A stretch of 64,000 nucleotides of DNA from Diplonema japonicum (Eukaryota > Protista > Euglenozoa: Diplonemea). The DNA is taken from contig OZ025725.1 of NCBI GenBank assembly GCA_964019335.1, positions 372,001 through 436,000 on the forward strand, read 5' to 3'. The translations under genes were made by a program, and so were the position numbers. Shown in pieces: positions 3,660 to 30,900 of the stretch. Positions within the stretch are counted from its first letter, which is position 1. The number at the start of each line of letters is the position of its first letter. The notes beneath the pieces were generated by a model. The model worked only from the letters and a program-made list of their open reading frames with translations. It ran no database searches and was not told the origin of the DNA.

Positions 3660-4322
3660 ATGAACGTAAAGCTGGTAGCGATCGCAGTGACGAGCGTGGT
3701 GGTGTGGACCTTTCAGGTTGCAGCATTGGCTGACGAGAAGGGGTTCGTGGTGAACAAGATAGGGGGAGGGGGCGATGGGGTATTTGAATCCACAGGGTGG
3801 AAAGGGTACAGGTACGACTCCTGCAAGGAGAGGAAAGACCACATGAGGGCCGCGGCGGCATTCGGCACCCTGGCTGTTCTTGTCCTCTCGGTCACGATGG
3901 TGGTGCATATAATGCTGGCAATACCACAAACAGGTCAGAAAGTTCTTGGGTTCGGTCTGATGGGGAAGGTGATTACAGACTACCTTTGGGTGTTTTATGC
4001 CGTGGCAGGGATCTTTCTTCTGCTCACGTGGGGCATCCTCTGTGGACTTTATGACAGACAGCTCTGCGGGTCCCGTGTCAAGTGGGCAAAAGAGCTCAAT
4101 TTCGGCTTCACTTTCTTCGTCATCAACTCTGTCGTGTGTGTCTTTATGGCCTTTGCTGCGTACAACCGTGTGCACGTCCAAGGTGTCGCACAGCGTGATG
4201 AGCAACCTACTCAGCAGCAACAGGAAATCAAGTACACTAGTACTACTGCCGGGGGGAACCATCCCCCACCTCCGAACCCGATCGATGCTGAGTGCTTTGA
4301 ACATGCACCGACTCGAAAATAG
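3660..4322 (+). CDS. Amastin-like tetraspan membrane protein
   Basis: Four hydrophobic segments. C..R.....AAAAF, Y....C and FGFTFFV patterns typical of amastins. Confidence 0.65.
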   Translation: MNVKLVAIAVTSVVVWTFQVAALADEKGFVVNKIGGGGDGVFESTGWKGYRYDSCKERKDHMRAAAAFGTLAVLVLSVTMVVHIMLAIPQTGQKVLGFGLMGKVITDYLWVFYAVAGIFLLLTWGILCGLYDRQLCGSRVKWAKELNFGFTFFVINSVVCVFMAFAAYNRVHVQGVAQRDEQPTQQQQEIKYTSTTAGGNHPPPPNPIDAECFEHAPTRK

Positions 4323-9194: not shown

Positions 9195-9347
9195 TAGACT
9201 TTTTAGAATTTCTCTTTTTTTTTTTCCCTTGTTGTTTTATTGTACCTTTTGTACTGCCCTGTAAGTATTGTGCTTTTTTTTTTCTTTTATTTTTATTTAT
9301 TTTTAGGGAACACTGGGTTCGGATAATCAAAAGTCACGACGACAAAA

Positions 9348-11750
9348 ATGCCACCGCAAGGCCGAGGTGGAGCCTCCACGACGGCGGTTCCTGGGCGGGC
9401 TTCCTCTCATAAGGGGAAGTCCGGCGAATCCACCAGGCCGAAGACGAGGGAAGCGGTGCAGGATCTGGCCAATAGGCTGGAGGGTTGGAAGGTGATAGAC
9501 ACCGGAAGAAGGCAGGGAGAGTGCTTCTTCGAAGCGGTGTCGTACGCGGTGCACGGCGCGAGGGACGAGGCGGGGGCGCTGCGGGAGGTGGTGGCCTCTC
9601 ATCTGGCGGGGAAGGACTACTCCTCCTTCATGATGGTGGAGGAAGGGGAGAAGGCTGCGGCGTGGAAGGAGTACCAGAGGCTGGTAACTCTTTCGGGAAC
9701 GTGGGCGGACAGGCTGACGGTCAGCACGATGTCCGTGGTGATGGGACGCAGGATCTGTGTCTTTGCTGTAAGGGATGACATCCTCACCCTGAGCTGCTTC
9801 GAGCCGGGGAGTAGGAATGAGGTACCAGACACGGCCACGCTATGGCTGGGCTATGTGGAGGGCCACTACGTCTGCGCGGTGAAAGGGGAGGACTCGAAGA
9901 TGCCTACCACTACAGCGTATGTGCCGCCGGTGAGGATCCCACTCCCCATCCGCAGCGAGGGCGCGAAGGACGGGAAGAAGAAGGAGCAGGGCAAGCCGGC
10001 ACGCAAGGCCATCATCGCATGCCTTGCCGAGGACGAGTGGCCCGTGCACGTGCGGGAGTGGGAAGGGGCGGAGACACAGCCGGAGCGGGCGGTGTACCTT
10101 GTCCCGCAAGGCTCTGAACGGTTGGCAGCGGAGTGGCTAAGGGGCGCGCCGGCTGCAACGGTCGTTTCATGGGGACGTCTCCCCTACTTCTGCGGCGAGG
10201 AGGCTGAGGTCCTTCTGAGCACGAACGAAGGGCGCGGGAAGACGTGCAGACGCCTGCAGGTGACATCCCGCAATGGTCACCCTGCGATGCCGGACGCAAA
10301 CAAGGAGGAGATGGAGGAAGAGGAGGAGCTGGAGGAGCCGGAGACCTGCACCTCGGAACTCTATCTGGTTACTCAAACATCGCTGGACGCCGAGAAGGCC
10401 AGGTCGAGAGTATTGACATGGCTGAGGGAGAGAGCAGGGCGGTACCTCACCAAGAGAGGCAGGAAGCGGGACGGCGTTTTCGAGGTCCCAATCACGGTGA
10501 TGAAGACCGATGTCCAGTCGATCCTCATGCGCAGTGGCGAGGACGGCGTGTTTGTGCGCCAACCGTGGGAAGCACGCGATCTCCTGCCGGTTTTGTGGCT
10601 GGAGGGCACGGCACTGAAAGCGGCACTGCTGTTCAGGCGTGAAGTGTGCGGATGGGGACTGACCTTCAAGAAGTCGGGCAAGTCCGTCGTCTACGGGGTA
10701 AGGGTACCGAAAGCCGAGCTTGACACAGCAAGGCGGGTGCTCAAAGACCGACATGCCGATCTGAAGGTGACAGCGACAGCAGCGACACTGCTCGACGGCG
10801 AGCACTATGAGGTACAAGGGGTGCCCTCTTCGATGAACGGCCTCGAGCTGGAAGACCGCTTGAAACGGTCGGGATGGCCGGTCACGGTGAGGAAGAGGCT
10901 GCATAGGTTTGGCGAAAAACAGTCCTGGGCCGTGACTTCGTGCTCGAAACCGAGAGGTCTGGTTCTGAATGTCCAGGGCACGCGTTGGACCATCCAGCCG
11001 CTGGAGGGTGACCTGCAGAAGAAGAAGAAGAACAAGAAGGGCGCGAGTGACAGTAATAAGGCCGTATTCACATTGCCGCCGAACGCCATATGGGGCAGAC
11101 AAGCCGGGCAGGCGAACCCATCATCCGCGCCTACACCTGCGCCAGTGTCGGACACGCAGGCGTCAACACACCACGCTGCGTCAACACCTGCGACGCACTC
11201 AACGCCGGTAGCCGAGGCTCTACCCCCACCGAACGCGCCAGCACCTGCTACGAAAACGATGGCGTCTGTCGACGCTTTCGAGGAGTGGGCGCGGAAGAAA
11301 GAGCTGGAGCACGAGCAGGAGAGGAAAGCGATGGAAGCGAGAGTGGTGGACATGGAGAGGAAGGCTGCCGCGACCATCTCGCTAGTGAAGTCGATGGAGC
11401 AGAACATGCAAGCTCTCGGCAGGCAGATGGAGATGGTAACAACACGTCTCGAGAGGTTGGATGCGGTGGCTGTGGCGGTGTCCGAGCTGGTTAAGACTGT
11501 CCAGTCTATCCAGCAGGACATCCAGACTGCGAAGCGCACGGACAAGAAGAGGAAATGCGACGACACGACGACCAGCAAGAAGGCACATTCGGGTGCCCTT
11601 GTCCCCACGAGTGCAACGGGTTCGATGACACCGATATACCTGCCCGGCGGCACACCGACATGTGCGGCCACACCTGACGTGCACATGGCCATAGCTAACA
11701 CTATGACCCCCATCCTACCAATCGAACATGACCCTGACGAGTTCAACTGA
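9348..11750 (+). CDS. Retrotransposon ORF1 with N-terminal OTU-like cysteine protease domain, central alpha/beta region and C-terminal coiled coil
   Basis: QGECFFEAVS (Cys codon 9522-9524), LREVVA, GTWAD, RRICVF, WLGYVEGHY (His codon 9864-9866). Pro/Ala linker, then heptad repeats. Confidence 0.85.
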   Translation: MPPQGRGGASTTAVPGRASSHKGKSGESTRPKTREAVQDLANRLEGWKVIDTGRRQGECFFEAVSYAVHGARDEAGALREVVASHLAGKDYSSFMMVEEGEKAAAWKEYQRLVTLSGTWADRLTVSTMSVVMGRRICVFAVRDDILTLSCFEPGSRNEVPDTATLWLGYVEGHYVCAVKGEDSKMPTTTAYVPPVRIPLPIRSEGAKDGKKKEQGKPARKAIIACLAEDEWPVHVREWEGAETQPERAVYLVPQGSERLAAEWLRGAPAATVVSWGRLPYFCGEEAEVLLSTNEGRGKTCRRLQVTSRNGHPAMPDANKEEMEEEEELEEPETCTSELYLVTQTSLDAEKARSRVLTWLRERAGRYLTKRGRKRDGVFEVPITVMKTDVQSILMRSGEDGVFVRQPWEARDLLPVLWLEGTALKAALLFRREVCGWGLTFKKSGKSVVYGVRVPKAELDTARRVLKDRHADLKVTATAATLLDGEHYEVQGVPSSMNGLELEDRLKRSGWPVTVRKRLHRFGEKQSWAVTSCSKPRGLVLNVQGTRWTIQPLEGDLQKKKKNKKGASDSNKAVFTLPPNAIWGRQAGQANPSSAPTPAPVSDTQASTHHAASTPATHSTPVAEALPPPNAPAPATKTMASVDAFEEWARKKELEHEQERKAMEARVVDMERKAAATISLVKSMEQNMQALGRQMEMVTTRLERLDAVAVAVSELVKTVQSIQQDIQTAKRTDKKRKCDDTTTSKKAHSGALVPTSATGSMTPIYLPGGTPTCAATPDVHMAIANTMTPILPIEHDPDEFN

Positions 11751-11757
11751 AGGGACG

Positions 11758-11797
11758 CCAGCCATGAAGACATCCGGAGGGACATCTTCATGGGTGG
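11758..11797 (+). promoter_or_regulatory. Stem-loop 3' of the ORF1 TGA; candidate readthrough/recoding element
   Basis: CCA-g-CCATGAAGA-ca-TCC-[GGAG]-GGA-ca-TCTTCATGG-g-TGG: 15 Watson-Crick pairs, starting after a 7-nt spacer from TGA 11748-11750. Function is inferred. Confidence 0.55.
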
Positions 11798-14700
11798 AGC
11801 TAGGGACCCCAATTCGCTCACAATCACAACTCTCAATGTGGGGTCCCTGAGCAATAAGGTGGACGAGGTGTTGGCCATGGAGAGCGACATCTCGTGCTTG
11901 CAGGAAGTGAAGCTGACCGCACACGGACAACACATGATTGGGAGGCATGTTGAGGACAACGGCAGGTATCGTGCGCTGTGGGGAAACCCACAGCCCGGTA
12001 TCGTGGTCGATGGACTTGCTGCTCCCGACAAAGCACAAAGAGGTGGAGTCGGCATACTAGTACAGCGGTGCAGGCCGGCGATAGTCAAAGCAGTCGCTTC
12101 GATGGACGACGGCAACAGGTGGGTCCATGCTATGATCAACTTGGACGGACGAGACATGTGGCTCCACCTCATTGTGGTATATTGCCACTCGGGAAGTTAC
12201 GGCAAACACCAGCGTGAGACACTTTTGAACAAGGTGCTGAACGAGATGAGATGTGCCCTGGGAGATGTTCCTATCATCGTCGCGGGGGACCTAAACACCG
12301 AGGTGTCGCAATCAGGTGTACTACAGCAGGCGGTTGGGTGTGACTGGGTGGATGCAGCAGCAATGCAGGCCGAGAAAGACGGGGTAAGGCCGAGCCACAC
12401 CTTTGTGAGGAGAGCCACTGACACAAAGACACGCATCGACTACGTCTTGATGAACCCGATCGCTGCGGCGGGACTACAGAAGGCGTGGGTCCACGACACG
12501 GTGTATACCAACGAACACAGATGCCTCTCCATCAAACTGTGTATCCCTACTCTCAAGAGCAAGACACGCAAGTACTTCATCCCGAAGGAACTGCCGGTGT
12601 CGACTGCTAGTGATGACCACGTGATTGAGCTGCTACAGGCGGAGAGATTCATCCAAAAACTTGAGGACATCGACGGCGCATACCGTGTGCTGGCTGACGT
12701 CTCGGAAAGACACTGCATCACAGGCGTGCCGATGGAGCAACAGAAGACTTTCCGAGGGAGGGGCGAGGAGCGCAAACCCAAGGAGAAATGCCTGTCGGCC
12801 AAGTCTGTAAAGGAAGCCACGGGCGCAGCGGTGGGTAGACAGAAGTCGATTGCCTGTTTGCAGAGGAAGCTTGCACACATCAGCGCGGAAATCCAGGTGA
12901 TGATTGACAAGGGACAAGTGTGCAACATGCCAGTAGTTCTGTTGAAGACTTGGGCGAATGCTCTGAGTTTGCTGGAGAAACTGCCGAACCCTCCAGTGTT
13001 TGATAGGAACTTGCTGAAGGATGACCTGGAGTCGATTGTCACCAGACTTCAACTGCTAGACGACAACCTCTCCTCGCTACTACGCGAGATCGCAAAGGAC
13101 ACGAGAGTGGAGCGGGAGAAGAAGTACGAGGCGAGGATCAACACCCAGTTCCAGGAGGAGCGGAGGGGGATGACCGCCTTTGTGAAAAACACTTCTACGT
13201 CAGCGGCGCAGGCAGTGGAGAGCGGCGGAGTGCTGACCGCAGACCTCGACGAGATGGACAGGATGATGCACGCGGAATGGGACGGCGTGCTCCAGATGTA
13301 CGGTGAAGGGCATGAAGAACCATCGTACGAGGCCTTCAAGGCTAGATACGGGCCATACATCTCGACGCATGACATGGTGCTCCAGCCACTGACAGGGGCT
13401 GATCTGAGAGCAGTTCTGGCCAAGAAATCGACGAGGACAGCACCGGGAGTTGATGGGTGGAGGATGGCAGAACTTCGCGCTATGCCAAATGTATTGTTGG
13501 ATGCGTGGGCGATGCTCTTCAACGCCATCGAGGTGACAGGGAAGTGGCCGAAGGCACTCCTGACGGCGTTGGTTACGCTGATCCCGAAGGGAGGCGAGAG
13601 GACTCCGCTCAACCACCGCCCCATCACAGTCACGAGTGCGGTCTACAGACTGTGGGCCTGTGCCAGGTTGCGTGATATATCGCCATGGCAAGAGAAATGG
13701 GCGGACGACTCGCAGCATGGTTTTCGACCACGTCACGGGACGGACAGCATCCTGATGGAGCTCAGCACGCAGCTGGAGACGGCGATGCTGACCAACACCC
13801 CTCTTAACGGCATAGCACTGGACTTCGTCAAGTGCTTCGACAGGGTGCCACAGAAAGTAGCGTTCGGGCTTATGCAAGACCTGGGTTTGCACCAGAGGAT
13901 ACTGACCCCGCTCAAAGCGATGTACGCAGGCCTCAAAAGACGTTTCCGCTTCCCTACTGGCGTGGGTTCCGAGTTCCACGTGACAAATGGAATTCTCCAA
14001 GGGTGTCCAATCTCCGTCATCCTGGTGAACGCTCTGGTGTCAGTGATGGTGAAGTGCGTGATTGCTGAGGTACCTGGCTCGCGATCGCTGTCGTACGCGG
14101 ACGACGCGTACCTACTTGCGCGTTTGGTCGAGGTACTCAAGAGAGCGACCAACAAAACAATCGAGTTTTGCGAGCGGACAGGCATGCGCCTTAACGAAAA
14201 CAAGTCACAAGCATTCTCGACGAAGGATGAGATCGGCCCTTGGTTGAAGTGCACAGGCTCATCGTTCAGAGTGACGAAGGGGATCAAGGCGCTTGGCGTG
14301 ATCCTGAACATGAACGGGAAACATAGTTTGGACAAGCTACATTCCGCCGAAGGCCGTTTGTCCCGGCTTGGTGCATTGCCATTAAGCTTCGGGAACAAGG
14401 CGTCAATGCTGACGGGCACTGTGCTACCATCCTGTCTATACGGTACGACCTACGCTGCGCCGTCTGACAACCAGCTGAAGAAGCTCTGTACAGCGACGGT
14501 GACTTCCCTGTGGGGACCGCGCTTCAGGATGAGATCCCCGATGGCTGTGCTCAATGTGCTGTTACCTGGACACACAGCATATCCACAAGCGAAGATTGTT
14601 TACAACACGGTGAACTGCCTGATGCGAGAAAGCCTCACCTCCCCACAACTGTGGCAGCGAGTCAATGAGATTGTTACACTGTACCGGGAGCGAGAGGACG

Positions 14701-15878
14701 ACGAGGAGAGGGGGCCGCTAGGGGTCTTGCTGAAGAGGTGGCTACCCTTCCTGAACAAGGGGTGGTCCTTCATTGAAGGTTTGCGCGCTCTGGTGCCCAG
14801 TGCGAGACGCCATGAAGTAAGACAGGCGATCAGACCGGCTGTTGCAAAGGAATTGATCCACGGCAGGTCGTCTTTTGCTGGAATGGAAGCGGGTGCATGT
14901 CCGTCCACGAACGCCTGGTGGAGGAAGCTCCAGTCACGGAGACCGCTGATATCGTACAGACTGCGGCGGATCATCAGCGGTGCAGTGTTCACGGTACACC
15001 CTCGAGTGTGGGGGAAGCAATTGGATGAACGTGAGGGTGTGGAAAGCTCGTCTCTTGCGTGCGACGTCTGCGACCATCGATGCCAGACGACGACAGAAGT
15101 CACGGAGCACGCCCTATGGGAATGTGCACCAGCGAGAGCTGCCCTGACAAACGAAAGATATGGCGGGATGACGCGAAGTGACCTACCTGCAGTGACCGCC
15201 CTCCACGGGATCATTCCAAGGGGCGCAACGGGGGCTGCGAAGCAACAGGCGGCAGTCGTGCAACGATACCTGTTGGATGTCGTGTCAAGACGAGACGCCA
15301 GAGCGGCTGAACGGAGCACCAGAATCCTCACCACCAACCCGTGGGATGAGATCACAACGGGGAAGCAGCACACTGTGCCCACAGTGGAGCTGTTGAAATC
15401 GAACGGAGCGTCGGGAAAGGTCCTAATGTTCTACATGAAGAGCGTCCTCAGGTGGCTGAAAAGCCTAAGATGGTACGCAGGTAGGAAGTTGACGTCCGTC
15501 ACGACGATGGAGCTCGCAGTAGACTATGAGCAGGCCACCCGGCAGTCCTTGGCTGGACCCCTCGACGACCAGGACTGGCTCACAGAGAAGGCTGGAAGGA
15601 TGCGATACATCTTAGGACGTATTCAGAAATGCACAGCAAAGAGTGGGAAGAATGCTTTCCCCGCCAACGCAAAGACAAGGGTACACACCCTTCGACATCT
15701 TGGGGGCCCGACGACACACGGCTACGACAGGAGACCACTCTTCTCCTCGAGCCAAACCGCCCCCTACCTAGCACGACTCCAAGCAATGTTTCTCGCCCAG
15801 ATGCCGTCCATCTCATCGCGACAAACAGCCACCGCAGGCACCAGACAGCAACCGCAGAACGGTGACCGATTAGTGTGA
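11790..15878 (+). CDS. Retrotransposon ORF2: APE endonuclease + reverse transcriptase + CCHC knuckle + C-terminal domain
   Basis: APE: TLNVGSL, CLQEVK, GGVGIL, VVYCH, AGDLNT, TRIDYVL, NEH. RT: APGVDGW, HRPITV, QHGFRP, LDFVKCFDRV, GILQGCPIS, YADD. Knuckle: CDVC...EHALWEC. Confidence 0.95.
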   Translation: MGGARDPNSLTITTLNVGSLSNKVDEVLAMESDISCLQEVKLTAHGQHMIGRHVEDNGRYRALWGNPQPGIVVDGLAAPDKAQRGGVGILVQRCRPAIVKAVASMDDGNRWVHAMINLDGRDMWLHLIVVYCHSGSYGKHQRETLLNKVLNEMRCALGDVPIIVAGDLNTEVSQSGVLQQAVGCDWVDAAAMQAEKDGVRPSHTFVRRATDTKTRIDYVLMNPIAAAGLQKAWVHDTVYTNEHRCLSIKLCIPTLKSKTRKYFIPKELPVSTASDDHVIELLQAERFIQKLEDIDGAYRVLADVSERHCITGVPMEQQKTFRGRGEERKPKEKCLSAKSVKEATGAAVGRQKSIACLQRKLAHISAEIQVMIDKGQVCNMPVVLLKTWANALSLLEKLPNPPVFDRNLLKDDLESIVTRLQLLDDNLSSLLREIAKDTRVEREKKYEARINTQFQEERRGMTAFVKNTSTSAAQAVESGGVLTADLDEMDRMMHAEWDGVLQMYGEGHEEPSYEAFKARYGPYISTHDMVLQPLTGADLRAVLAKKSTRTAPGVDGWRMAELRAMPNVLLDAWAMLFNAIEVTGKWPKALLTALVTLIPKGGERTPLNHRPITVTSAVYRLWACARLRDISPWQEKWADDSQHGFRPRHGTDSILMELSTQLETAMLTNTPLNGIALDFVKCFDRVPQKVAFGLMQDLGLHQRILTPLKAMYAGLKRRFRFPTGVGSEFHVTNGILQGCPISVILVNALVSVMVKCVIAEVPGSRSLSYADDAYLLARLVEVLKRATNKTIEFCERTGMRLNENKSQAFSTKDEIGPWLKCTGSSFRVTKGIKALGVILNMNGKHSLDKLHSAEGRLSRLGALPLSFGNKASMLTGTVLPSCLYGTTYAAPSDNQLKKLCTATVTSLWGPRFRMRSPMAVLNVLLPGHTAYPQAKIVYNTVNCLMRESLTSPQLWQRVNEIVTLYREREDDEERGPLGVLLKRWLPFLNKGWSFIEGLRALVPSARRHEVRQAIRPAVAKELIHGRSSFAGMEAGACPSTNAWWRKLQSRRPLISYRLRRIISGAVFTVHPRVWGKQLDEREGVESSSLACDVCDHRCQTTTEVTEHALWECAPARAALTNERYGGMTRSDLPAVTALHGIIPRGATGAAKQQAAVVQRYLLDVVSRRDARAAERSTRILTTNPWDEITTGKQHTVPTVELLKSNGASGKVLMFYMKSVLRWLKSLRWYAGRKLTSVTTMELAVDYEQATRQSLAGPLDDQDWLTEKAGRMRYILGRIQKCTAKSGKNAFPANAKTRVHTLRHLGGPTTHGYDRRPLFSSSQTAPYLARLQAMFLAQMPSISSRQTATAGTRQQPQNGDRLV

Positions 15879-15891
15879 ATTTCTCCCTGAA

Positions 15892-15915
15892 CGGTGAGCA
15901 CCCACCCGCACACCG
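15892..15915 (+). other. 3' UTR stem-loop of the retrotransposon
   Basis: CGGTGaGC-[ACCCACCC]-GCaCACCG, 13 nt after the ORF2 stop. Confidence 0.4.
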
Positions 15916-15999
15916 AAATTTATCAAATTTTATTGCCGAATTGTTTTATTGTTTGTGTGTGTTTTTCTCTTTTGCATCCCACCAGTAACTTGACAGGAA

Positions 16000-18900
16000 A
16001 TGCCGCCCAAGTTGCGCAACATCGGCCCGTCCCCGGGCATGCAGGGGAGGATCAGCAGGAGCGGTTGGAACCCTGCTCTGAAACGGAGGAAGAAGGTGCT
16101 CGCACGAAAAGTGAAAAAAACTGCAAAACCAGCGGAGGAGAAAGAAACATGGACGGTGGTGCGGTTCAGGTCCGACAGGGACAAGGTTGCGACCAAGCAC
16201 GATGAAGCCCTAGGATACCTGGTGCAGGGAAAGGAAAGACTGCGGTTAGAGGCGAAAAAAGGCCAAGCACACACTTTAATCGCCGTGGCAGGGAAGCTTG
16301 AAAACGAAGGACTCGTCCAATATAAAAAAATCGAAAACCAGGTTCAGTACGCAAACAAAGTACAAGGCTCGCATAGCTTCTGCACTGTGGTTGTCCTCCT
16401 TGAGCGGAATGAGGATTTCTTTGCAAACCTAGAAAAGCTTGACAAACGTGTGTCTGCATCAGAAGCCGCCCTCACAGCGCTGCCCAGCGAGCTGCCGTAC
16501 AACGGGGCCGACATAAAGAAGAGCTACAAGGTAACAGGCCCGGCAGTGCAAAGCGTGTTTGATCAATGGGACAAAGCGCAAGAGGACTCACCCGACAAAC
16601 CAAAAAACACTTTGAACTGGATAGACAAGAGGCGTAGCCCTGTGTGGTGCAACAACATCTTCAACGCGGAGTTCGGCAGCCACCACTTCGACGACAACCA
16701 GGTAGAGACGTGCTCGGCAATGCAGATTTTCTCCAAGCTCTTTCGCGACACGATGTTGGAGCAGCAGCAGTGGCTTGGCCTCACGCCGAAGCAGTTCGCG
16801 GTGATGCGCTGCATTCACACAGCCATGATCGCCTCGATGCCCATGTTCAACAAGCGAAAAGCCTATGACCGTGACGCAAGCCCGCACTCCCTCGCAGCCT
16901 TGATCCATGAGGTAAGCAAGCTGCTCAGCAAGCTAGAGCCCGGTGGTGTATGTATTGTACCCATTTGCATCGACCTCGCCAAGCTGCCCATGATCATCGA
17001 GATGGATCTCAACAACAAGGCCAGGGTCACTATTGTGAACAGCGGCTGCAGTGCATACCACCCTAAAGTCGCCACAGCGCCCAACAAGATCCAGCAGTAC
17101 ACCACAGTGAGCATCAGCGATGTTTCCATGGATGCCTTGGAGGACGAGGCTTTCTGGATCTTCGTCCTTGACAACTCTGTGTACCCGGAACAGGTTTTCT
17201 ATACACACTTCCTTGGCTGGCTCCATCAAGGCATCCCTTACTACAGTGCCATTAGCTCCACTCCTGACGAGCAGACACTGAGGACACCGACAAGCAAGAC
17301 TGCTCCATGCATTTGGAAAGCGCTGCACCACACTGTGGACTACCTCGCACAGAGGAACGGGATTGAGAAGGAACGCAGAAAGTTGTTTAAGTTCAACATG
17401 CGGCATCAGCTGCTGAAGTGGGTTGTGAACGATCTGCACGTGACAAAGATGATTTCAATGAGCGGCAGGATGCTTGTACGCATTGCGGGTGAATGTGTTG
17501 CCAAGTCTGCGGTGTCGATGCCGTACCTGAAGACGTCAAGCAGACACCTGTCGGCGGTGAAAGACACTCTGGAAAAGATCGACAACAGGATTGCGATCAT
17601 GCAGACAGAGACGAACGTAACCGACCCACCAGCACAGCTAGACCTTAATAAGGGGCATAACCTCCTCGCGCAGGTAGCTGTTCTGCCGTGCTTCGAAAGA
17701 CTCCGCAGGTTGGAGGATGTGGACGGGCTTGCTGGTGCTCTCATCCCGCAGCCAAAGTTCGTCCCTGCGAACTTCTTGCTCGTCCCAGACCGTGTTGTCA
17801 ACAGGCCGCGTGCGGTAGACGCCCTGCGTGACGCCGACATGCTCTGCACAAGAGTCATGGTGCAGAACAAGGTCATCAAAAACGCACACTTCCTCATCAT
17901 TTCACTCATTGAAAACCTCTTCATCCATGTCCTTCCAGTGCCAAAGTACGGCGACCCGGAATGCATATGGCAGCAGCCCTTGATGTACGCACAGCAGTTG
18001 GACATTCTTACCCTCCTCCAACGTCTCATGGAGCATTGGGCTGCCGCATGCTTCAGCACGCTTGCCAGTCGGGAATTTGACATTATCAGGATAACAGTTG
18101 CTGGTGCAATGTCAACCATCGCTGATGCGGTTTTAAGGAAGCAAGCAACTGATAGGCCATCGCAGATGTCGGCGCATCTTGCGGGTTACAAAGGCAGGCT
18201 GCCGCCTTTTGCGCCAACAGCAGGCAAGTACGCAGAACAGTCCGAAACAGTGGAAGTGATCGCTCCGGAGGTCAACATCGTCAGAACACAGGTGCTTGAC
18301 TACTTTGAGGCACTCTTGTCCATCGCCCCGCCTGACAGGCATATCTTCAAATGGGAGGTGACGTGTAAGTCCGACTTGGGGTCCGCACGGCTCTGCTTCC
18401 AGATGGCTGATTACCAAGCCTTCCCGCTCGAGGCGCCCATGAACTACCTGTCGCAAGACACAGACCCGCACTACCTCATCACGAAAAACTGTCCGGAGTT
18501 CAAGGCGTACCGCGATGTCTTCTTCTACTTCAAGTATTTCATGAACACGGAGGCCGGTGGGTTCCCACACCTGTCGTCATACAACCAGCATGCTGCGCAG
18601 CTCAGCTGGCAGTACCTGTGCGCCGTAGGGTACCAAGTCGAGGCCTTCGACAGAATGCTGTCGTGCAGGGCGCGCACTCACAGGTGGCCTTCGTACGCAG
18701 TGGCTTCAAGGTTCACTCTACCCAACGAGGCGACCAACGAGGAGGACGTGCTGCACATCAAGACGCTGCCGACGTTTTCCGACACCATAGGTCAGAAGGA
18801 CAGCGAGCTACTGCTGTCGTACCTCACTGCGCCGTACATCAGAATACCGCTGGTGGCAAACTTTTTTGCAACAGAGGACAGAGTGTCCCTGCTGCGGAAG

Positions 18901-21900
18901 GAAGTTATGCAGAACATCTTCGACTCTGTCCTGTTCGAACCTGGCAGGTACCAGTCGGTGGAGCACACCAACGTTTCCCCCACATGTGTGCCTTCCGAGA
19001 AGGACGAGCTCCTCAGCACCCCTTATGGCTTGCTCATCAATGAGCTTCAACACAGTCCACACGCCATTATCGACCCCTTGCTGGCACTCCTTGACCTTGC
19101 GGTGGAGCTTGACTCGGGCACTGTGTTCAACGACACGGCTGTGGAGATCATGTGCTACTTGGTGAGGATGCTGTCACGCGTCTATAACTACCTGTCGTTC
19201 CTCCTGCAGCACGCTACCCGGAGACACAAGTCTTTCGATAAGCCTCTCCGCGGTTTGAACATACAGCCCACTTCGTTGCGCGCCATCGCAACCTTCCACC
19301 GTGTGTTCCAAGAGAGGCTCCACAACGAGCTGCAGCCTATGCTTGAAAAATGGATGGAAGAAGCACGCAACTCTGTTATGAAGCACGAAGGGGAGACCAA
19401 GTCCGTTGAGACCACCGAGCTCGACCGTGTCACACAACTGATTTGCAAGCTCCAGGCACATGTACTGCTGCTGCATAGAAACACAGAAACGCTCGATGCC
19501 ACGTCAACAGGCACGTTGTTGGGGAGCTTTGTGTACATGTCAGCGCGTCACACGTGGAACCAGAAGCTGATCCCTGTCCCCGAGACGGAGCTCTATGAGA
19601 TCATTCACCTGCAGCGAAGGTCTTTGGTGGAGTATCTCTGCACGTCGGGGTCCAGCGCCATGTCATTTGTGCTTGACGGTGTCGTGCGTACAACTACGGA
19701 CCATGGCGGCAGAGAGCCCACAGCAGGAAGCAGGGTTCGGAACTGGTCGTACGTCGATGGCTCTAGCAACATCGGGAGGTTCACGATCCACTCCACGCGC
19801 GCCATGCCGATGATGGCGCAAGAGCTTCGCGACGACTTGAAACGGAGCTTCATCTCAAAAAGCCTAAACGAAGAGGTGCCGTTCACTGCGGACGGGTTTC
19901 AAACAGACGAGATCAACTTGCAGACGTTTCAACTCACCTTCAGGACGTGCCACCTCAAGGCACTCCCCGAACAAATATGCTGCAACGAGGACGTGGAAAC
20001 TGTGTTTTACGAGCAGCAGGACAGGCTGAGCGTCTTCCAGTGTGCGTCTGTCGAAAATGCACAGCACCGTGAGTGGGTGAGACTTGTCGGGCAGGAACAC
20101 GACATTCAACACTGGAACACATCAGACCCGCGAATGTTCCTCGCTGAGAATGACAGGATGTACCCTGAGTTCCTTAAAGACAGCGAGAAGTGGATAGAGG
20201 ACATCTTCGAACCTGTGAGGAGGAACAACTTAGAGCGCCCTCCATGGCGGCCACCTATTCTCATATATCTTCCCGAGAAAACCATCACTGAGTCAGAGAC
20301 AACAGTGTACCTGGAGGCCATCGACTCTGAAACAGGCGGGGTTATTGCGGAAGTATATGTGTTCCGGGCGCACAAAGCGGTGCACATCTACGAGCCTTTG
20401 TGGTTCGGCAGACGGAGATACAGGTCACTTGGGTACACTTCTGATGCGCGGTCTTCACTGCTGGCACTTCAGCCAAGCACGAAGGACAGGGACACCAAAT
20501 GGGCACCGTGGGCACGGTACGAGGCAGGTCACATTAACACGAAGAGCCAAGGCAGCGATTGCATCATCCTCCGCCACGCCACAGCGATCTCAAGCACATC
20601 AGGGCAGAAGTATTATGGCATAGAGGGCAACCTCAGCGGTGGCATCGAGCAGTTCATTCCTCAGCGTCTCCTGCACGGCCTTATTCCAAGCTGCCTGCTG
20701 GATTCGTACCTGTTCTGGCAGGACACTCAAGACAATCTAAGGGGCTACCCCATCAAGAACGAAGACCCAGAGGTTCAGCAGCCGCAGGATATTATTTTTG
20801 TCCAGCTACGCGATGTGAGCTACAAGCCCATGAAGGCGTCCTTCCCGCATACTGTGGCAAGGATAACAAAATACAGCCACTGGAGCCACTGCCCTAGAAC
20901 GCAGGATCCCAAGAACACCCCCGTGGAGCACTCTGAAGGTGCTGTGACGGAACTCCCTGACCTGGACCTTGAGCTGGCCCTGACACGCACTTCGACAACT
21001 GACGATGTGGATGAGATGCTCCCCAGGCAGAGCAGTTCTCAGCAATGTCATGATGAAAATATGTTGCTGCTTGACCTGCTGCACGCCGCAGAAGGTACCC
21101 CTCTCTTTAGCTTGGCACGACTGCTGATGCACATTGAAGACTTGTCACACATCCTAGCATGGACAAGGGCAGACTACAAAGACGGCGACCCATTTGAGAT
21201 CAGCAGGATACAGCTACCAAGGTTGAAACTCAACTTTACTGCGAAAGCCGACATATCCGGGGAGGTGAGGCTGTACTCCTTAGATCATGCTCACTTGTTC
21301 GTGTCGAATGACAGAAACCCTCTAACACTGAAGCTGCTGCAGGGCATGCCGCACGCACTGTTGATGCAAGACATCCATGGGCAGGTGTCGGTGTTGTTTC
21401 CCTCCTTCAATGTGAAGAGGCCTGACATCGACGACAACCCGTTCTCAACAGACATCGTCATCATACGCAACGACATGGAGTGGCTCATGAACTGTGACAC
21501 GAGGTACTACCTGTACCCTATACATGTCTCGTTGTCATTCTTGTTCACGCCGACCTTGGCCGCTGCATTGTACTTGTTGCTACACAAATTTAACTATCGT
21601 GACTACGAAGAGTCCTTCAGACTGTCTGGTGCCATCGGGACAGACAGGGAGCTCACAGCGGAGGAAAACCAGATTTTTGACAAGCTTGGGAACATTGTTG
21701 ACACGCACCCTGACGCACATGCGTGCAGGTGCAAGATTAGTCTACTGACTGCAGACTCACCATTGGAATTCCAATGGTACGTGCCAAGGGAGTCGACTAA
21801 ATACCTTCTGAAGAAGTCGAAAGTATCCGCAGCGTGTAAGCTCAACGACATGGAAGAGAAGCTGCTGATGTGGATCTCGTACTCTACAGAGGAGAAGATG

Positions 21901-24900
21901 AAGATCATCGAAGCGCAGAAGGCAAAAGATAAGTACGCCTTCGACCTGGTGTCAGACGCTGTTTACGAGAGTTTCGACAGTGTGCTAGAGGGGACAACAA
22001 ACAAGGTGAGACGCATCAAGACTTTCATCAAAGAGGTCAAGGAGAAGATCAACACGACACTGGACCTGAAGTGCGGCCGTGATGAGATCTTCCGTCTCGT
22101 GAGCATGTTCCTCAACGTATACCCGCCGTGCCTGGAGCCGTACTACCAGTGCTTGCTGTTCAACTACAGACAGTACCTCTCTGCTGTCGTTTGTGAAGAA
22201 GATGAGTGTGAGGTGCAGCTTCCTCCCATGGGCAAAGACGAACACTGGAACTTCAAAAGCGACTTGACCGGGTTAAAGGCATTCCCCGCAGCAAGGTTCC
22301 TCAATGTGAATCACTGCCACGAGAACCTCGTGTCTTTGAATGGCATCCTCAGCAAGATGAGCACCCTCACTGAGTGCTGGAAACGCAGGAATGAGAACCC
22401 GAACTCGAAGGATGAGTACGATGACCGGGTCATGCTGACGGGGACTGACGGGAACAACCATTCCATCCTGTGGTACTACAGCCTGCTGAGGGGGAAGACA
22501 AGATTCAAGGTAGGAAAGTTCAGGAGCACCCCGTGGTGCGTGTTTTGGATGATGCTCCCCTTCCACAGGCTTGCTAAGGATGCCAAGAAGTCCTTAGACT
22601 CTAGCGACACTATCATGAACAACTTCCTTGTGGCGTGTGCTTATGCGATCAAGAACAACCCATCTGTGCTCCCAAAGCTTCCTGTGTGGGAACCCGATAG
22701 GAAGAAGCACAAGTACACTGCTGACTGGGACACAAGTGTCCCATACTGGGAGAACTTCATAAGGCAGTTCTCGAAGGTGCTCAATGAGAGTGACCTGAGC
22801 GAGCTTCCTAACCCGAAGATCTTTGCAACCTTGAAGCCTGCCCCCAGGTACATGAAGGTGGTACCGCCCCTGTTGGAGAGGGCGTCTGTCGAGACACCTC
22901 TGACGTCGACGATGATCCTGCCGATGCTGACGAACTCGAGGTGCTCGTCAAGACTCCTGAAGCCGTCACTGGTCAATGGTCTCACGAGCAGGCAGCAGGA
23001 ATTGCTAGTCATAAAAGAGAATGACCTGCAAGCCTTTGTTTCCTGTCCACTGCAAGTGGTAGGACTCGACAAATACCTAGGGTACGTTACTCGGGACGAG
23101 CTCGGGTTGGACAGGGTGCCCTCAGAGCTACCATTCGATCTGTCAAAGCACCCCACATCCCACACGGTGGTGTCTGTGTCCATGGTGAACCGGCTCACCG
23201 CAGACATGGAGGAATTCGCGAAGGGGACCAATGAATCCACCATCCCCGCCTTGAAGGACTTGCACCCCAGCGAGCTGCGCAACATGCTGAACGGTGAAAA
23301 CGGTAAAGTACAGGAAGTGATCACCTCTCTGGAGATTCTGCTGGCGGACCTCACGAAGCTCCGCAACGAGGGTGTCACTTACATGGACACCATCCTTCCG
23401 CTCATTGTTAAGCTCGGCAATCATGTCCCGAAGAGCGACGCTTCGTGCGCCGGGATTTCCTTCATGTTGCGCAGGTACTGCAATCAAGAAGTTAACATAT
23501 GGCTGGAGTACATGTTCGGTGGGATGGTCAGCAGCAACATGAAAGAGGACATGCAGAAGCTGAACCCGTTCCTCTCTGACGAGGCAGTAGCGACGATTGA
23601 GCAGCTTGTAATCTCATCTGTTCTGATGGCGTGCCGTGTAGGCCATGCGAACAAGGCACGCGATGAGATCCAAGGGCTCATCGATGTCCTCAAGAGTGTG
23701 CAAAGATCTCGCGCGCTCAAGCAAGATGCCTTCGTGGCACACCTGCAGCAGAAGACCGACGCGGTTGCCAACTGCCTTGCCATGAGGCGGATGTTCTTCG
23801 AAACCACCGACAAGGGGCACACCTTCGACCCCCGCTTCATGATGTTCGAGTTCATCCTGAACATCGTACTGCGCGAGGAGCAGATTATAATGGTAAAAGA
23901 CTTCATGCATAGCCTGCAGAAGCCAGGGGGCTCTCTTGTGAAGCAGATGATCATGGGCGCTGGGAAGACAACTGTGGTAGGACCGCTAGTAGCGTTGATG
24001 GCCGCAGATGGCGACACGCTGATCATGCAAGTGGTGCCCGCTGCGCTGCTGGACTTCTCAAGAGGCGTGTTGAGGAAGACCTTTTCGTGCATCATGCGAA
24101 AGCAAATATTCAGTTTTGAGTGCGACAGGACCGGCGAGGTGGACACAGAGGTGTACGACAAGTTCAACAGAGCTCAGCGAACCTGCGGGATTGTTGTCAC
24201 GACGCCTTCTTCGGTGAAATCCATTTACCTTAAGTTCATCGAAGGGCTGCATAGGATGGAGGACACCAGCCTCAAGCCGCCGCTGCCTGAGGAAGAGAAG
24301 GAAGTGCGAATCCTAGCAAAGCTGCTCAATCAGTGGCAAAGCGCCGTTCTTGTCATGGACGAGGTGGACTTGCTGCTGCATCCCCTGAAGTCCGAGCTGA
24401 ACTTCCCTATCGGCGTGAAGCATGACCTCGACTTGGTGCCAGCACGATGGAGGTTGTGCATTCATCTTCTAGACGCAGTGTATTACAACAAACTGAGCAG
24501 GATGACCGTGCCCTTCAAGGACTCGTCGAAGGCAAGGGAGATCCTTTCTTTGCTGTGCGACGTCCTTGACGAGGGCTACAAGAGCAAGGCACTCCAACCC
24601 CTGCCGCACGTTATCTTACTAAACCTGAATTTTTACGAAACCAAGATGAAGCCTTTGATGGCCAGGTGGCTGCAGCTTTGGCTGCACTCGCAGCACCTCA
24701 CCGCCCTGAACGAGGACGAGGCCGTCAACTTCCTGATGCACCGCGACGACAGCCTCGTTGGGTTGATACGAGAAAGGCAGGTCCTACCGTACCATGTCAA
24801 GATGCTGAACTTGGGATATGATTGGCTTAACTCGTATCTTCCCCATGTGCTGCAGAAGATCAACAGAGTGTCCTTCGGTATCCTTGAGGAGAGGGAGATC

Positions 24901-27900
24901 AAGAAATTCCTGCAAAACCAACCCCTGACGCCGCAGACAAGGATCAAGCTCGCGATACCTTTCATCGGGAAGGATCAGCCGTCGCACAGCAGTGAGTTCG
25001 CCCACCCCGACATCGTCATCGGGTTGTCGGTGCTTGCCTACAGATACACAGGGCTGCGTGAGCAGGACTTCAATGCTGTGCTCAAGGAGATCCAAAGCAC
25101 TGTGGAGAAGGAGCCTGGGAAGTATTCTCAACGCAAGACGAATGTCATGTACGAGAAATGGGTGGAAGCTGCTGGTGGGAAGATCCTTGAGCATTTCAAC
25201 TACATCAAGAAGGTCGCAAAGGAGTCCGAAGAAGACATCACGTTGCAACCTTCAGAGTCTTACGCGACGGTGGAGGGAGCGGACAAACCCGAAGTGGTTC
25301 CTTTGCGACTGCTCAAACAGAGCAACAGAGAGGAGGTCACGAAGCTGTACCACCTCCTCAAGAGAACACCCGAGGTTATACACTGGTTCTTGGAAAACAT
25401 AATTTTCCCGGAGTGCATGCGACACCAAGTAGTCAAAATGAGCGCCTCGGGTCAGGAACTTGGTGGGACAATGGTGTTCGGACGCAGAATTGGGTTCTCT
25501 GGAACACCATCCGACCTGCTGCCTGAAGAACTCGGGAAGTGCGACTATGAAAGATGCACCGACGGAAGGCTCATACACACTTTAACAAGCACCGACACTG
25601 TAAGCTATAGGATTCTCGATGCTGGCTGGACAGTGCGTAGCGTGCTGAACCTTATCTGCACAACCAGTCCACCCTTCCACGCGCTCATCGACACCGGGGC
25701 CCTCATCACTGGGATGAGCAACTTTGAAGTTGCAAAGTACCTCCTGAAACACGGGCTCCCTACTATGGAGGGATGCGTGTTCGTAGACGAGCACAACAGA
25801 CAGATGATCCTAGTCCGTGCCACAGGGAGGGTCCTGAAGCTCGAGGAGTGCGGCATCCCACCTCTGAAGAGGTTTATGTTCTACGATCAGGTGCACACCA
25901 CTGGGATGGACGTGGCACATACTCCAAATGCGCAGGCTGCACTCACAATGGGCAAAGACATGACCTTCAGGGACTTCAGTCAGGGGGCTTACAGGATGCG
26001 TGGTATCGCAAAGGGGCAAACAGTGCATCTGCTTATCATCCCTGAGGTGTACGACCTCATCAGCAGGGAGGTGAGGGCATGCGGTGGGAGGCCGCTCGAT
26101 ACGCCGGTGCCCCACAATGCAGAGAACAACCATCGGGTTCTGGTCGACTGTGTCACGTGGCTCATGGTGAACTCGATGAAGATGGAGCGCATGCAGTTCA
26201 ACCAGCTCTGCGTCCAAACCACTGCCAACGTCTACCGCAAGGCAGCCTTCCGCCATCTCCACCAAACTCATCGGGTGTTCACCCTAAGAGGAGGTGTCCG
26301 CCCCACTACGCAAGCCCGCAACGCTCTGAACGTGTTCCGTGAGCCTGTGTCTTTCCATGTGCCCGAGGTCGTACCACAGAGTAAGATGTTTTCCGCTGCG
26401 CTAGAGGACCTCACGACTGCTCACAAAGAGTTCATCAAGGGGAAGGAAGCAATAGAAGTTACCAAACGTGTGCAGGAGAAAGTCCGCCAGGAGGACGAAG
26501 TGAACAGACCGAACCACGATGTTCAGATGGTACAGGAACAGGAAGACGAGAAGGAACAAGAAGAAGAGAAAGAAGTAGAACGAGAGATTGAGATAGAACG
26601 GTTCATCGACTTGGCATACTCCAGGGACGACGAAGCGCCACAGCCGTGGCCTGTGGAGAGCCTGGGGAACCTGAAATGTATCTACTACCCTTCTGTCGGG
26701 ACAGTGCAATGTGAGACACAGTTGTTCTACAACTTGCAGAAGTTCAAGCTGTATAAAAGGCGCCCGCTTGACTTCCCCGATTCGCTTCTCCTCTCGAATA
26801 ACTTCTTCAACCCCTCATGGGGTGGGCACAGAAGGATCAAGAACGTCATCGTCATCCTGGAATGGGTTCACAACGCCGGCATGATCAAGGTCAAGCCCAC
26901 ACCGTCACGCGACTACGGAGAGTACCTCGCGGCAAACAGCGACGCCAACGACCAGGTGCAGCGGACGCTAAAGCTCTTGGTTAAGGACGGCAAGATGGAG
27001 ACCACTGGCATGACCGACCTGATGAAGATAGCCCTTGGGCACAGCGTGTCGAGCGCGGATATGTCAGCAGAAGTCATGGCATCCCCTTCGCTTGATGTAA
27101 GTGAGGCCACTGAGATCCTGAAGGGCAACGCCCTGCGAGGCGAGGAAGACGGGCGCCACTTCATGGCAGTTTCGCTTGCTGAAGCAGAGACGCTTCGGAG
27201 AATCATCCACATCAAAGGTAGTGCCGGGTTGCCGTTTTTGGACGGAAACCCCTCAACGCACGTGGCTTTGAGACACGTTCCCTCCGGCAACAAGGTGATC
27301 GACGCCAGCACTGAGTTCCCCTTTGCGAAGCACAACTACCAGCACTACAAAGCTCATGCCTGCTTCAAATTTTTTGATTGCGAAATGCAGTATTCTGGTA
27401 GCGCGCAGAACTTACTCCTACGTTCGATGCACTGCTCGCCTCCCAAGCAGCGCATGGTGTTCTTCACACAAGTCATGGGGTGCAGAAGGAGAGGAGGGCA
27501 GAAATGGGAAACAACGCCGTTGTCACAGGTGTTCCGGTTGTCCAGCGCGTTCACGCTGCTGCAGCAGAAGGCCATTGGTGCTGTGATGCGCAGGAGGATC
27601 AAAGAGAACAACCTCCTCCTTGGCGATGCTTTCAAGGCGTTCAACCCTTCGGGTTCTGGTGTCCTGTCACCTTCGGAGGTGTGGGGTGCTCTTACATGGT
27701 TGGGCTTTGAGACCTCTGCAGAAGAGATCCTGCAATTCGTGCAGACAGCCGACACCATTGGGGACGGCAATGTGAACTACCCTGACTTCCTGCAGATCTT
27801 AACTGGCGAGCGGGAGACGGAAGAGGACCTGAACGCTGCGGAGGATGCAGGGAAGACCCTCCCAAGCGTCCCATCCAGAGGGGAAGAGGTACTGAGAGTG

Positions 27901-30900
27901 CTTCGCGCAGAGATCTCCGCGATAGCACAGAACGAGGAGGCCATCGCACTAAAGGAGCAGGAGGAAGAGGACAGGGAAGCCGCGAAACTAATCGAAGAGC
28001 AAGAGGACACCATGTTTGCCCTGTCAGGAAGGGTACCCAACCCGCACATCGAGGCGAAGACTGTGAAATTCGACTTTGCTCAGAACGCGCTGCCGAGACA
28101 CGTGGTTGCTTACGGGAAGGCAAGGACACACCGCGAGAAGCCTGTCGTCTACTTGCAGTCGATGAACGTGTCGGGCTTGAATAGCCCCACGCCACTTCGT
28201 GACAGAGAGGAGCTGAGAGAGAGGGTGAAGGAAAAAGAACCCACACACATAACAGGGTGGGACATCGGTGAGGAATCGTACCTGAAGCTCCCCTTGAGGC
28301 TCATTGACAAGGAAGCACTAGGGATGGAAGTAATCGATGATGGACTGGACTCCGAAGCAGAGAGCTGGGCCCACACGTACACCGAAGATGAGACCTGCAC
28401 AGACACCGACTACGACGAAAGCGGTGATGGCGACGAGTTCATGGAAGCAGAACTCCTCTCCAACAGCGAGCTCTCTGTCAGGTCACACGGAGACAGGGTC
28501 GTGATGTGGCACATGGGCGACGTAGTCGTCAGGATGTTCACAGTGCACTACGAAGGAAACCACTTCCTTGGATACACCGTGAACGGTGCCTCACGCCCTG
28601 CACTTACAAAGGTCACGATTCGCAGGGACCCTTATGAGCTATACTTCCCTGAACACGGAAGGGGCCTGCAGCTTCCATCAGACCCTCATGCTGCTGTACG
28701 CGTGTTGCACAACGTGAGGAATCTCTGCGTGGATGCCTCAGTCACACACGACATCACACCCGACATCAATGTATGCAAAGACGTAACAACCTCACAACAC
28801 ATTTCTTTTTTTTCAGATACACCCCCCTGAGCGAGGGTACCGTGAGTGGTGCATTACGCTGGACATGAAATTCCCCACCAAGCGGACTTTCAGCGAGGTG
28901 TGCTTGGCCAGGGTGAGCACGAAGTGTGTCTTCGTTGTGTCAAGCGATGGTGTTGTGAAGTGCGATGAAGAGATCAGCGACGACGAGGTATGCATAGCAC
29001 CACGTCACATGTTGTTCAGGAGTCCGACGTCTCGGTGATGGATGACATTGATGACTTTGGGACAGACCCCTTTGGTGGGCTGGGTGGGTTCATAGGCTTC
29101 AACGGCTTTAAGAAGTACTACATGTCGTCTGACACTGAGCTCAGCGACGACGAGTTCTTTGGTTTTGGCAACAATGTTAAAAAAGAGGAGGACAGCGAAG
29201 AGGTGAAAGAGATCCTCGCAGAATTGTCGAAGATGGACGCTGACAAAATGCTGGCGGAAATGCTCGCCGACCAGAAAAAGAAGAAAGGCGAGAAGAAAGA
29301 CGAGGACAGCTCCGATGAAGAGGAGGACCACGTGTCCGACAGGTCAAGCACCTCTGCGGAGAGCAACCTTGCCAAGCCGAGCACGAACAGGGTCCCTATC
29401 GACGACGGGGAGGTATGCTATGCTGCAATGCGCCTTATCAAACACATCACATCAGTGGCACATCGTAACGCTGAAAGTTTTCGAGCCCATCAAAGATGAC
29501 GCTGAAGACGTCTCTCCGGAAAAGCCTGATCTCTCTGACAAGGGACAGAAGGTATTAAAGCAACAACTCAAGTTACTTTGACATTTCTCACAGCTTGAAG
29601 ACGGATGGCTTGTACACCACAAGACACATGGGTACTGCATAGCGCACCCCGTCGGGGAGGCCTACACTATAGAAGTCCTCGATTCACATGAAAAGGTAGA
29701 TGGTGTTCCACGAGAGGACCTGTACTACGCCAAGCGCCCGCTGCGGAAGGAAGAAATCGTCTTCACGAAAAAGAAAAGCGGCTACACACAGGTACGTGTC
29801 ACTTAAACCAACAGCCACCGGACGCATCACACAGGGCTTTGTGGAAGTGGTTCACAAGGATGGGGCGTACAGCATTGCCTGCGATGATGGGTCGTTCCAC
29901 CACAATGTGAAGGCAGATCACGTAGACTCGGCTGATGAGGTATGTACACTGTACACCTGTTGAATCACATAAATTCAGTACTCGCGCAAGACAGGCAGCA
30001 TCGAGGAAGGCGCAAGGGTGTGGGTCCGCCCTGAGGTGCGCAAGCCTGTATATGGGTGGAACGGCGTAAAGCACGGCGACATAGGTGAGGTTGAGTGCGT
30101 GTGTGACACGACTGTGACCGTGCACTTCAGCAACAACGACTGCTGGGAAGGCGAGATGGACGAACTGGCCATTCCACCGGAGGATGTCCTGCGCAAGCAC
30201 GACAAAAACCCCGAGGAAAAACACCGCCCTGTCTGCCTGCAAGCCTTCATCGACGGCAAGCAAGTTGAAGTCGACGGGCAGCCCAGGGCAAGGTACACAA
30301 GGCTCAGAATGGAGAAAGGCCTACAACTCTTCGGCGGCGACAAGATAGGCGCATTGAAGATGCTTGGCGGGATCGTGAAGTGGGCGGACCTGTCAGTGCA
30401 GCACCAGGAGGAGCGCGATATCCTAGACAGCCACAAGACGTACCTTGAGGGGTGCCAATGGGCATGCAACCATTGCAACAAGGACAACCAGCGTACCATC
30501 AACACGTGCGAGTCGTGTGCCCACGCAAGGTACACAGTCCCCAAGGAGTCAGGCACTCGAGGGGTAGTCGACACCGATGCTGAGGACGACGCGGAAGCCA
30601 TCGCCGAGCGCAGGAAGGTTGTCGGTGCTATGCCACGCTCTCAGCTTGCAACGGAAGCCAGAGCAAAAGCCAAGCGACGAGGAAGGAAGTTTGTGAAGTG
30701 GGTACTACAAAGGGACGATCCTCGTTACAAACGGAAATCGGAGCAAAAGAGCAAACAAGATGTTAAAGACAAGCAAAAGGCAAAACGTGTTATCACAAAA
30801 AAGCTTCAAGAGCTCTGCGAACAGTACGACAGCCAGATCCAACCCCTCTCGCACCAGATCGAGAGGCTCGAGCTGCAAGCTCATCAGCAGAAAACCCATG

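Follow-up and report, generated by a model that had tools for sequence, protein, structure and literature searches.

Non-long terminal repeat (non-LTR) retrotransposons are described as producing their proteins through reinitiation, entry at an internal ribosome entry site or 2A peptides (PMC3708506, PMC3894237), and most published 2A elements have no first open reading frame (ORF1; PMC3894237). Signals for stop-codon readthrough have spacers of 6-12 nucleotides (nt) and stems of 10-16 base pairs (bp), with the context UGA-A in kelch (PMC3159437), and 11-12 nt occupy the mRNA entry channel (PMC13517186). Among the literature matches listed in our search, readthrough concerned retroviruses, RNA viruses and the LTR element Tca2 (PMC2194720) and none described it in a non-LTR element, subscription journals and Repbase reports lying outside that search. 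The word "readthrough" occurs nowhere in PMC3708506, and seven of the eight supplementary files of PMC10161547 gave no match for non-LTR, readthrough or selenocysteine. How ORF2 of long interspersed elements (LINEs) is translated is an open question. In this study, we analyzed a 64,000-nt stretch of Diplonema japonicum DNA (contig OZ025725.1, positions 372,001 to 436,000; hereafter the window), which carries an apparently active LINE whose ORF1 and ORF2 share a frame and are split by one UGA with two hairpins behind it. Production of ORF2 by hairpin-stimulated readthrough of this UGA, giving a predicted ORF1-ORF2 fusion, is in our view the best reading of the junction and a rather probable one.

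Translation from 9348 gave 800 amino acids (aa) up to the TGA, beyond which the same frame was open to 15878. A previous sequence-only reading had described this arrangement, and its details were reproduced: the 13 sense codons between the TGA and the ORF2 Met at 11790 translate as RDASHEDIRRDIF, the spacer after the stop is the purine-rich 7-nt AGGGACG, and the computed length of a fusion is 2,176 aa. It had overlooked an out-of-frame AUG at 11764, which precedes the ORF2 AUG and pairs with it, the two lying within the CAUG arms of one stem. The next in-frame Met after 11790 is at 11877, beyond the conserved Asn motif of the apurinic endonuclease-like (APE) domain. The context of the stop is UGA-AGG rather than the UGA-CUA or UGA-CGG of the type II readthrough signal.

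Genomic copies were gauged through contigs from public sequencing runs, which lose rare variants and mask differences lying less than about 30 letters from where an alignment stops; run X1 was taken as DNA on the grounds of its 101-kb contigs. The question raised earlier, whether other copies have a sense codon at the stop, was answered in favour of the TGA. A contig of X1 over 11386-12084 (depth 264) did not differ from the window, junction-spanning contigs of X3 and X12 showed zero and one difference (at 10922), and no alternative letter was listed at 11748-11750 in four of four further runs. Across 11640-11930 one contig of X7 had a single change, which was synonymous. The stop is family-wide and not private, contigs showing the majority state. 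The D. japonicum protein P0039, which resembles the ORF1 tail at 53%, has the same DEFN terminus, with only 18 of the 56 preceding columns identical. TGA was also confirmed as a normal stop of host genes, ending a 2OG-Fe oxygenase (7369), a DUF3638 gene (28830) and a kinase (62701). UGA as a general sense codon was rejected: TGA terminates host ORFs, and a host ORF of 4,278 codons has 58 TGG and no TGA.

The 15-bp hairpin at 11758-11797 proposed to bury the ORF2 AUG was borne out by folding, every pair having a probability of at least 0.99 (11758-60/11795-97, 11762-70/11785-93 and 11773-75/11780-82). The 60 nt past the TGA fold at -26.1 kcal/mol, which none of 200 shuffles equalled, and for 20 further long ORFs of the window the corresponding 60 nt past the stop reach 0 to -13.5 kcal/mol. 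With the second hairpin included, 11751-11855 ranks first in structure among 187 windows of 105 nt over the element (z -4.86, runner-up -3.89), in a register chosen so that one window begins at 11751, which favours that window; the 86 nt considered in the sequence-only reading score z -2.15 alone. Further strong hairpins of the element (z -2.9 to -3.9) lie at 9336-9440, covering the ORF1 start, 9616-9755 and 11926-12030. The only pseudoknot partner for the loop of hairpin 1 within 120 nt, looked for with no pseudoknot folding program, has 4 nt (11830) and is altered in the sister family described below. Pairing of the spacer with 11843-11848 is possible and was rejected as 7 kcal/mol worse.

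A sister family surfaced when contigs of four runs were matched to 11640-11930 at 80% likeness. It was found in all four (depths 349, 42, 923 and 4,240; single-copy flanks in X9 148-246), with 126 nt aligning from 11792 with 19 differences (X2, X7). Of the 30 letters that replace 11762-11791 in the sister, 13 differ (ungapped), a rate above that of the adjoining coding part. These 30 nt fold at -20 kcal/mol (z -4.2, zero of 200 shuffles as good), and those of the window at -11. Loop and closing pairs are unchanged. Two A-to-G substitutions seal a 2x2 internal loop, G-C replaces an A-U pair, and the lower stem is formed anew by different letters, with one bulge. In type II signals, too, a short spacer is followed by a 3' stem that shows compensatory changes, the changes here coming from two sequences only. 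When 13 random changes avoiding in-frame stops were simulated in 20,000 trials, -11 was kept in 331 and -20 reached in 0, and with ten bases of the hairpin top held fixed the counts were 1,776 and 7 of 20,000. The sister has no AUG at 11790, where it has a Ser codon, or at 11764, and its nine whole codons in view contain no in-frame stop. In the region of hairpin 2, four unlisted differences were deduced by count in 11792-11821, and none is listed in the 3' arm.

With 13 of 30 hairpin bases changed, the sister thus still has a stem in the same place, and a stronger one, which argues that the hairpin is, on these two sequences, under selection; most of the sister's codon changes alter the amino acid, so that the constraint would act on the RNA. 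Conservation of the hairpin, on which the sequence-only reading depended, therefore stood as far as the paired changes go, and conservation of the frame was assumed, the sister's stop lying outside the 30 letters.

Under the favoured readthrough, the majority of ribosomes would terminate at the UGA and release the 800-aa, RNA-binding ORF1 protein (ORF1p). A minority would be held at the UGA by the stem (core starting 11 nt further on), a near-cognate tRNA would supply an amino acid, and these ribosomes would continue to a 2,176-aa ORF1-ORF2 fusion, giving a high ratio of ORF1p to reverse transcriptase (RT) in the style of gag-pol. Such readthrough would explain together why the frame is shared and the linker has no stop, why the core stem lies 11 nt past the UGA, and why the sister strengthened its stem and lost the AUG. 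The geometry of the junction appears to fit known readthrough signals. That the stem acts on termination, and that the fusion is made, we infer. For the sequence-only reading, which had already proposed readthrough, the TGA in other copies, the kept hairpin and the dropped AUG proved favourable; readthrough itself keeps the standing of an interpretation, and L1 and SART1 are precedents for reinitiation.

Several points weigh against this reading. The +4 base is A, versus C in type II signals. Translation of human L1 ORF2 does not depend on an AUG (PMC11485995, PMC1965478), and therefore loss of the AUG in the sister fails to single out readthrough. The UGA and predicted pseudoknot of Tca2 drove no readthrough in yeast (PMC2194720). 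The sister's stop and spacer lie beyond the visible 30 letters, hence the assumed frame, and the tie to P0039 is likewise indirect; its ORF2 protein was not found in protein searches, and it may be non-autonomous. Three other D. japonicum families retain a Met before the APE domain.

Distant loci add weak support and further points of the same adverse kind. Fifteen were compared, seven of which extend upstream of the APE domain, six with a candidate ORF1 end. Three of the six (L001, L003 and L005, in different sub-branches of the RT tree) have one in-frame UGA, then a stop-free linker, a 2A-like motif and the APE domain; the base after the stop is C in L003 and L005, and L001 has no Met before the APE domain. 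Three of six in frame is within chance (about 0.3 by a hand estimate), each of the three carries a frameshift elsewhere, and their upstream frames were unmatched by the ORF1 profile and were assigned by position and look. None of the stems after the stops of L001, L003, L005, L007 and L008 was significant (best z -1.69). In L008 (2413-2603) ORF1 ends in TAG, and ORF2, which lies in another frame, starts from an AUG of its own and encodes a hydrophobic leader plus a 2A-like motif; P0003 of D. ambulator is similar. L007 has UAG and a long gap, L012 a duplicated 2A-APE start, and L011 stops short of ORF1. In L002, an in-frame TGA (1556-1558) stands at an RT Trp position within an otherwise open ORF2, reflecting either decay or a variant code. 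The LINE-like RT contigs L011, L012, L013, L014 and L015 come from prokaryotic metagenome-assembled genomes and are probably misbinned eukaryotic contigs.

The strongest competitor, which we judge unlikely though worth serious weight, is structure-assisted termination-reinitiation, in which ribosomes would stop at the UGA, be held by the hairpins and restart at the AUG or AUG-independently, giving a separate ORF2 protein. SART1 requires structure 3' of its stop-restart site (PMC5972666, PMC3708506), and any sense codon is tolerated at the L1 ORF2 AUG (PMC1965478). Four ORF2 types of D. japonicum start with Met shortly before the APE domain in transcript models, and the out-of-frame ORF2 of L008 carries an AUG. 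Hairpins shortly downstream of an AUG can help initiation, and hairpin 2 begins 9-12 nt past the A of the ORF2 AUG, near the spacing of such hairpins. The conserved stem, however, buries the ORF2 AUG instead of standing after it, and the out-of-frame AUG at 11764 comes first. In SART1 the stop and start overlap and efficiency falls with distance (PMC3708506), and the gap here is 39 nt. In the sister the AUG is gone and the stem is stronger, and reinitiation does not need a shared frame.

It is less likely still that the hairpin serves another role, such as packaging of RNA by ORF1p, stability or protection from decay, with ORF2 coming from a trans-spliced or internally started RNA or from basal leakage. 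The three further strong hairpins of the element would suit this, diplonemid mRNAs are released from long transcripts through trans-splicing (PMC10161547), and a minor promoter lies within the Tca2 junction (PMC2194720). Against it, the strongest structure of the element begins immediately after the stop, and a separate mRNA would require an AUG, which the sister does not have. No pyrimidine tract was found upstream of the six AG sites in 11640-11790, where pyrimidines make up 37-57%, versus 90% for the 5' end of ORF1 and 70-77% for the host gene that follows. Contigs over 11640-11790 showed no spliced-leader-like loose end, a result that had no positive control and was not counted as evidence.

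Reading of the UGA as selenocysteine, with the hairpin acting like the SEPN1 redefinition element, is very improbable. The 15-bp stem after 7 nt does resemble the 16-bp stem after 6 nt of SEPN1 (PMC3159437); on the other side, no Rfam family matched 9200-16100 at E up to 1, a search that a divergent euglenozoan selenocysteine insertion sequence (SECIS) could escape, the 3' untranslated region is about 55 nt and weakly folding, and the site falls in a predicted disordered, apparently non-catalytic tail. The equally improbable view that the TGA is a nonsense mutation in a formerly continuous ORF or a sequencing error, the family having spread in trans, is largely refuted: the D. papillatum gene model P0031, which joins an ORF1 homolog, a 2A-like motif and APE-RT without a stop, speaks for it and may itself derive from an intron call, other members of its cluster starting inside the APE domain, and against it stand the TGA in all copies seen, two otherwise intact frames, P0039 ending at the same residues, and the ORF1 homologs P0038, P0041 and P0042 standing alone.

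These longer homologs (P0038, the P0041 cluster and P0042) carry no RT. P0031 was related to ORF1 by a profile search (E 1.4e-10), direct BLASTP of ORF1 against it not being significant. That the other members of the P0031 cluster begin at a Met inside the APE domain suggests an ORF2 without a usable AUG. In other families the first Met before the APE Asn motif varies, lying 16, 20 or 45 residues upstream, and a 2A-like motif stands just before the APE domain in P0003, P0005, P0031, L001, L008 and L012. A word search for ORF1 gave no matches, an HMMER search of representative proteins gave 13, of which none was an ORF1-RT fusion judging by length and content, and none of 202 candidate stretches of viral contigs was related.

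The coordinates of all features are given in Table 1. The structure model of ORF1 is of moderate confidence (mean pLDDT 54.6, RRM blocks mostly 60-85) and predicts the C-terminal tail at the stop to be disordered; RRM-like domains and a coiled coil, from this predicted model and Foldseek, would make ORF1 RNA-binding-like, as in APE-type non-LTR elements. The Cys and His motifs of its OTU-like domain are retained across homologs in the alignment. Diplonemid LINE ORF1 proteins bear an OTU deubiquitinase-like domain with intact Cys/His motifs, and no paper among the best 15 literature matches reported an OTU domain in a LINE ORF1.

Table 1. Features of the retrotransposon and its junction in the window (positions are those of the window)
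Feature	Position	Strand	Basis and remarks
Full-length APE-RT non-LTR retrotransposon	9305..15931	+	Branch points of contigs and steps in depth (runs X1, X9); ends approximate
ORF1, 800 aa, ending in TGA	9348..11750	+	Translation; homologs P0038-P0042
OTU-like cysteine protease domain in ORF1	9513..9863	+	Pfam OTU, E 1e-4, slightly short of the curated cut-off; alignment; Foldseek OTU matches
Two predicted RRM-like domains in ORF1	10350..10940	+	Structure model; Foldseek matches (E 1.5e-4 to 4e-4) to RRMs of Prp24 and SHARP
Predicted long helix (coiled coil) in ORF1, about 100 residues	11262..11564	+	Structure model
Single in-frame TGA, family-wide; ORF1 terminus DEFN	11748..11750	+	Contigs; P0039 ends likewise
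Purine-rich spacer, 7 nt; first six bases identical to 11802-11807	11751..11757	+	Sequence
ORF2 frame, 1,375 codons: 13-codon linker, APE (11829-12458), RT (13581-14303), CCHC-type motif	11751..15878	+	Pfam
Hairpin 1, 15 bp, GGAG loop; core stem from 11 nt past the stop; kept with paired changes in sister	11758..11797	+	Folding; contigs
Out-of-frame AUG in 5' arm of hairpin 1, 28-codon frame spanning the ORF2 AUG; AUG missing in sister	11764..11850	+	Sequence; contigs
First in-frame ORF2 AUG, paired within hairpin 1; Ser codon in sister	11790..11792	+	Folding; contigs
Hairpin 2, 13 bp, 27-nt loop; overlooked in the sequence-only reading	11799..11852	+	Folding
3' end common to a far more abundant short repeat	15588..15931	+	X1 depth 7,000-10,600 versus about 200-500 in the body
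Copy A: ORF2 (3' part) from a different family, 39% identity	1..3318	+	Junction beyond the window

In ORF2, the Pfam matches Exo_endo_phos (E 2e-9) and RVT_1 (E 5e-21) stand in the order APE then RT that marks this class, and the closest relative of solved structure is L1 ORF2p (E 1e-14). A protein labelled D. japonicum in EukProt, with 3 residues out of 1,362 unlike those of ORF2, is annotated as complete from the same Met. No RNase H was found at E up to 0.01, and no 2A motif occurs in the element (9305-15931), where Met-Gly-Gly stands roughly at the 2A position of its relatives. Ingi and L1Tc have a single ORF, a 2A motif before the APE domain and RNase H; the present element has two ORFs and matched neither 2A nor RNase H. 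In an RT tree of 22 rows, from which six short rows were left out and which contained no reference clades, it sits on a long branch among relatives from diplonemids and metagenomes.

As a weaker extension of the readthrough reading, the ORF1 OTU domain might cut the fusion near the Gly-Gly where relatives have a 2A-like motif; Gly-Gly-Ala is present in two families. Some viral OTU proteases cleave their own polyproteins and others do not (PMC3968130), and OTU cleavage of the fusion is a guess by analogy. The full retroviral plan in a non-LTR lineage, that is, a readthrough polyprotein with its own OTU cleavage at Gly-Gly before the endonuclease in place of 2A, seems doubtful to us as a whole.

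The X1 depth was 18-26 in the flanks, 169-264 over ORF1 and the junction, and rose to 1,500 close to the 3' end and to about 10,000 over the last 300 nt. This represents a young family of about 10-15 full-length copies with more numerous truncated ones; dispersed copies that become commoner toward the 3' end (X1 depth about 170 rising to 1,500) are typical of APE-type non-LTR elements. The short abundant repeat, which has many variants, is likely a non-autonomous partner element. Only 7-nt T-rich repeats were found across the element ends, with no clear target duplication and no poly(A), T-rich sequence following the 3' end; the 3' ends of other copies also run into T-rich sequence. The element starts at an AG directly 3' of a tract with 90% pyrimidines, with a 5' leader of about 40 nt (9305-9347); pyrimidine tracts may serve as its insertion sites, and its own first bases may be where trans-splicing takes place. 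One X2 contig (depth 58) fuses 9599 to 11783 over a 5-nt direct repeat with 2,183 nt lost, out of frame, and is either a deleted copy or a template switch. Copy A has no CCHC-type motif, which is present in its relatives, and is followed by an amastin-like gene (3660-4322). Directly after the element lies an intron-free DUF3638/DUF3645/EF-hand ORF of 4,278 codons (15994-28830). The arrangement of genes on one strand with T-rich spacers, seen in the window, suits a diplonemid.

A conserved stop-plus-hairpin signal would add readthrough to the routes by which LINEs translate ORF2. If the reading is true, the gag-pol strategy has evolved a further time, beyond LTR elements, and diplonemids would have a first readthrough signal for testing. 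The cassette of about 100 nt and its natural sister variant are ready material for reporter work. One lineage appears to combine readthrough, 2A and out-of-frame junctions.

Compared with known systems, the element shares with Tca2 of Candida albicans an in-frame structural-UGA-RT order (gag-UGA-pol) and predicted 3' structure; unlike it, Tca2 is an LTR retrotransposon, and its junction alone directed no readthrough in yeast (PMC2194720). From the 2A-bearing APE elements (Ingi, L1Tc, some CR1/L2), which its relatives resemble in a 2A-like motif before the APE domain, it differs in having a full ORF1 and neither 2A nor an RNase H match. SART1 and L1 likewise have a bicistronic LINE RNA, SART1 needing 3' structure past the ORF1 stop and L1 dispensing with the ORF2 AUG. 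Unlike in these, a 13-codon stop-free in-frame linker is present and the AUG lies in the stem, 39 nt from the stop, in place of an overlapping stop-start (UAAUG in SART1).

The signals of alphaviruses, furoviruses, kelch and SEPN1 are similar in a UGA, a spacer of 6-12 nt and a stem of 10-16 bp with compensatory changes, kelch also in UGA-A; the present signal differs in having no UGA-CUA/CGG, a compact local hairpin versus a long-loop stem, and no SECIS match. The gammaretroviral (type III) signal of murine leukaemia virus has UAG, an 8-nt purine-rich spacer and an H-type pseudoknot, in contrast to UGA, 7 nt and two hairpins in this non-LTR element, which is known from sequence alone. The two nevertheless share structural and RT genes in one frame, a single stop between them, a purine-rich spacer and 3' structure (PMC3159437, PMC13517186), and the high gag-to-pol ratio of the virus is what would be predicted for ORF1p and RT here.

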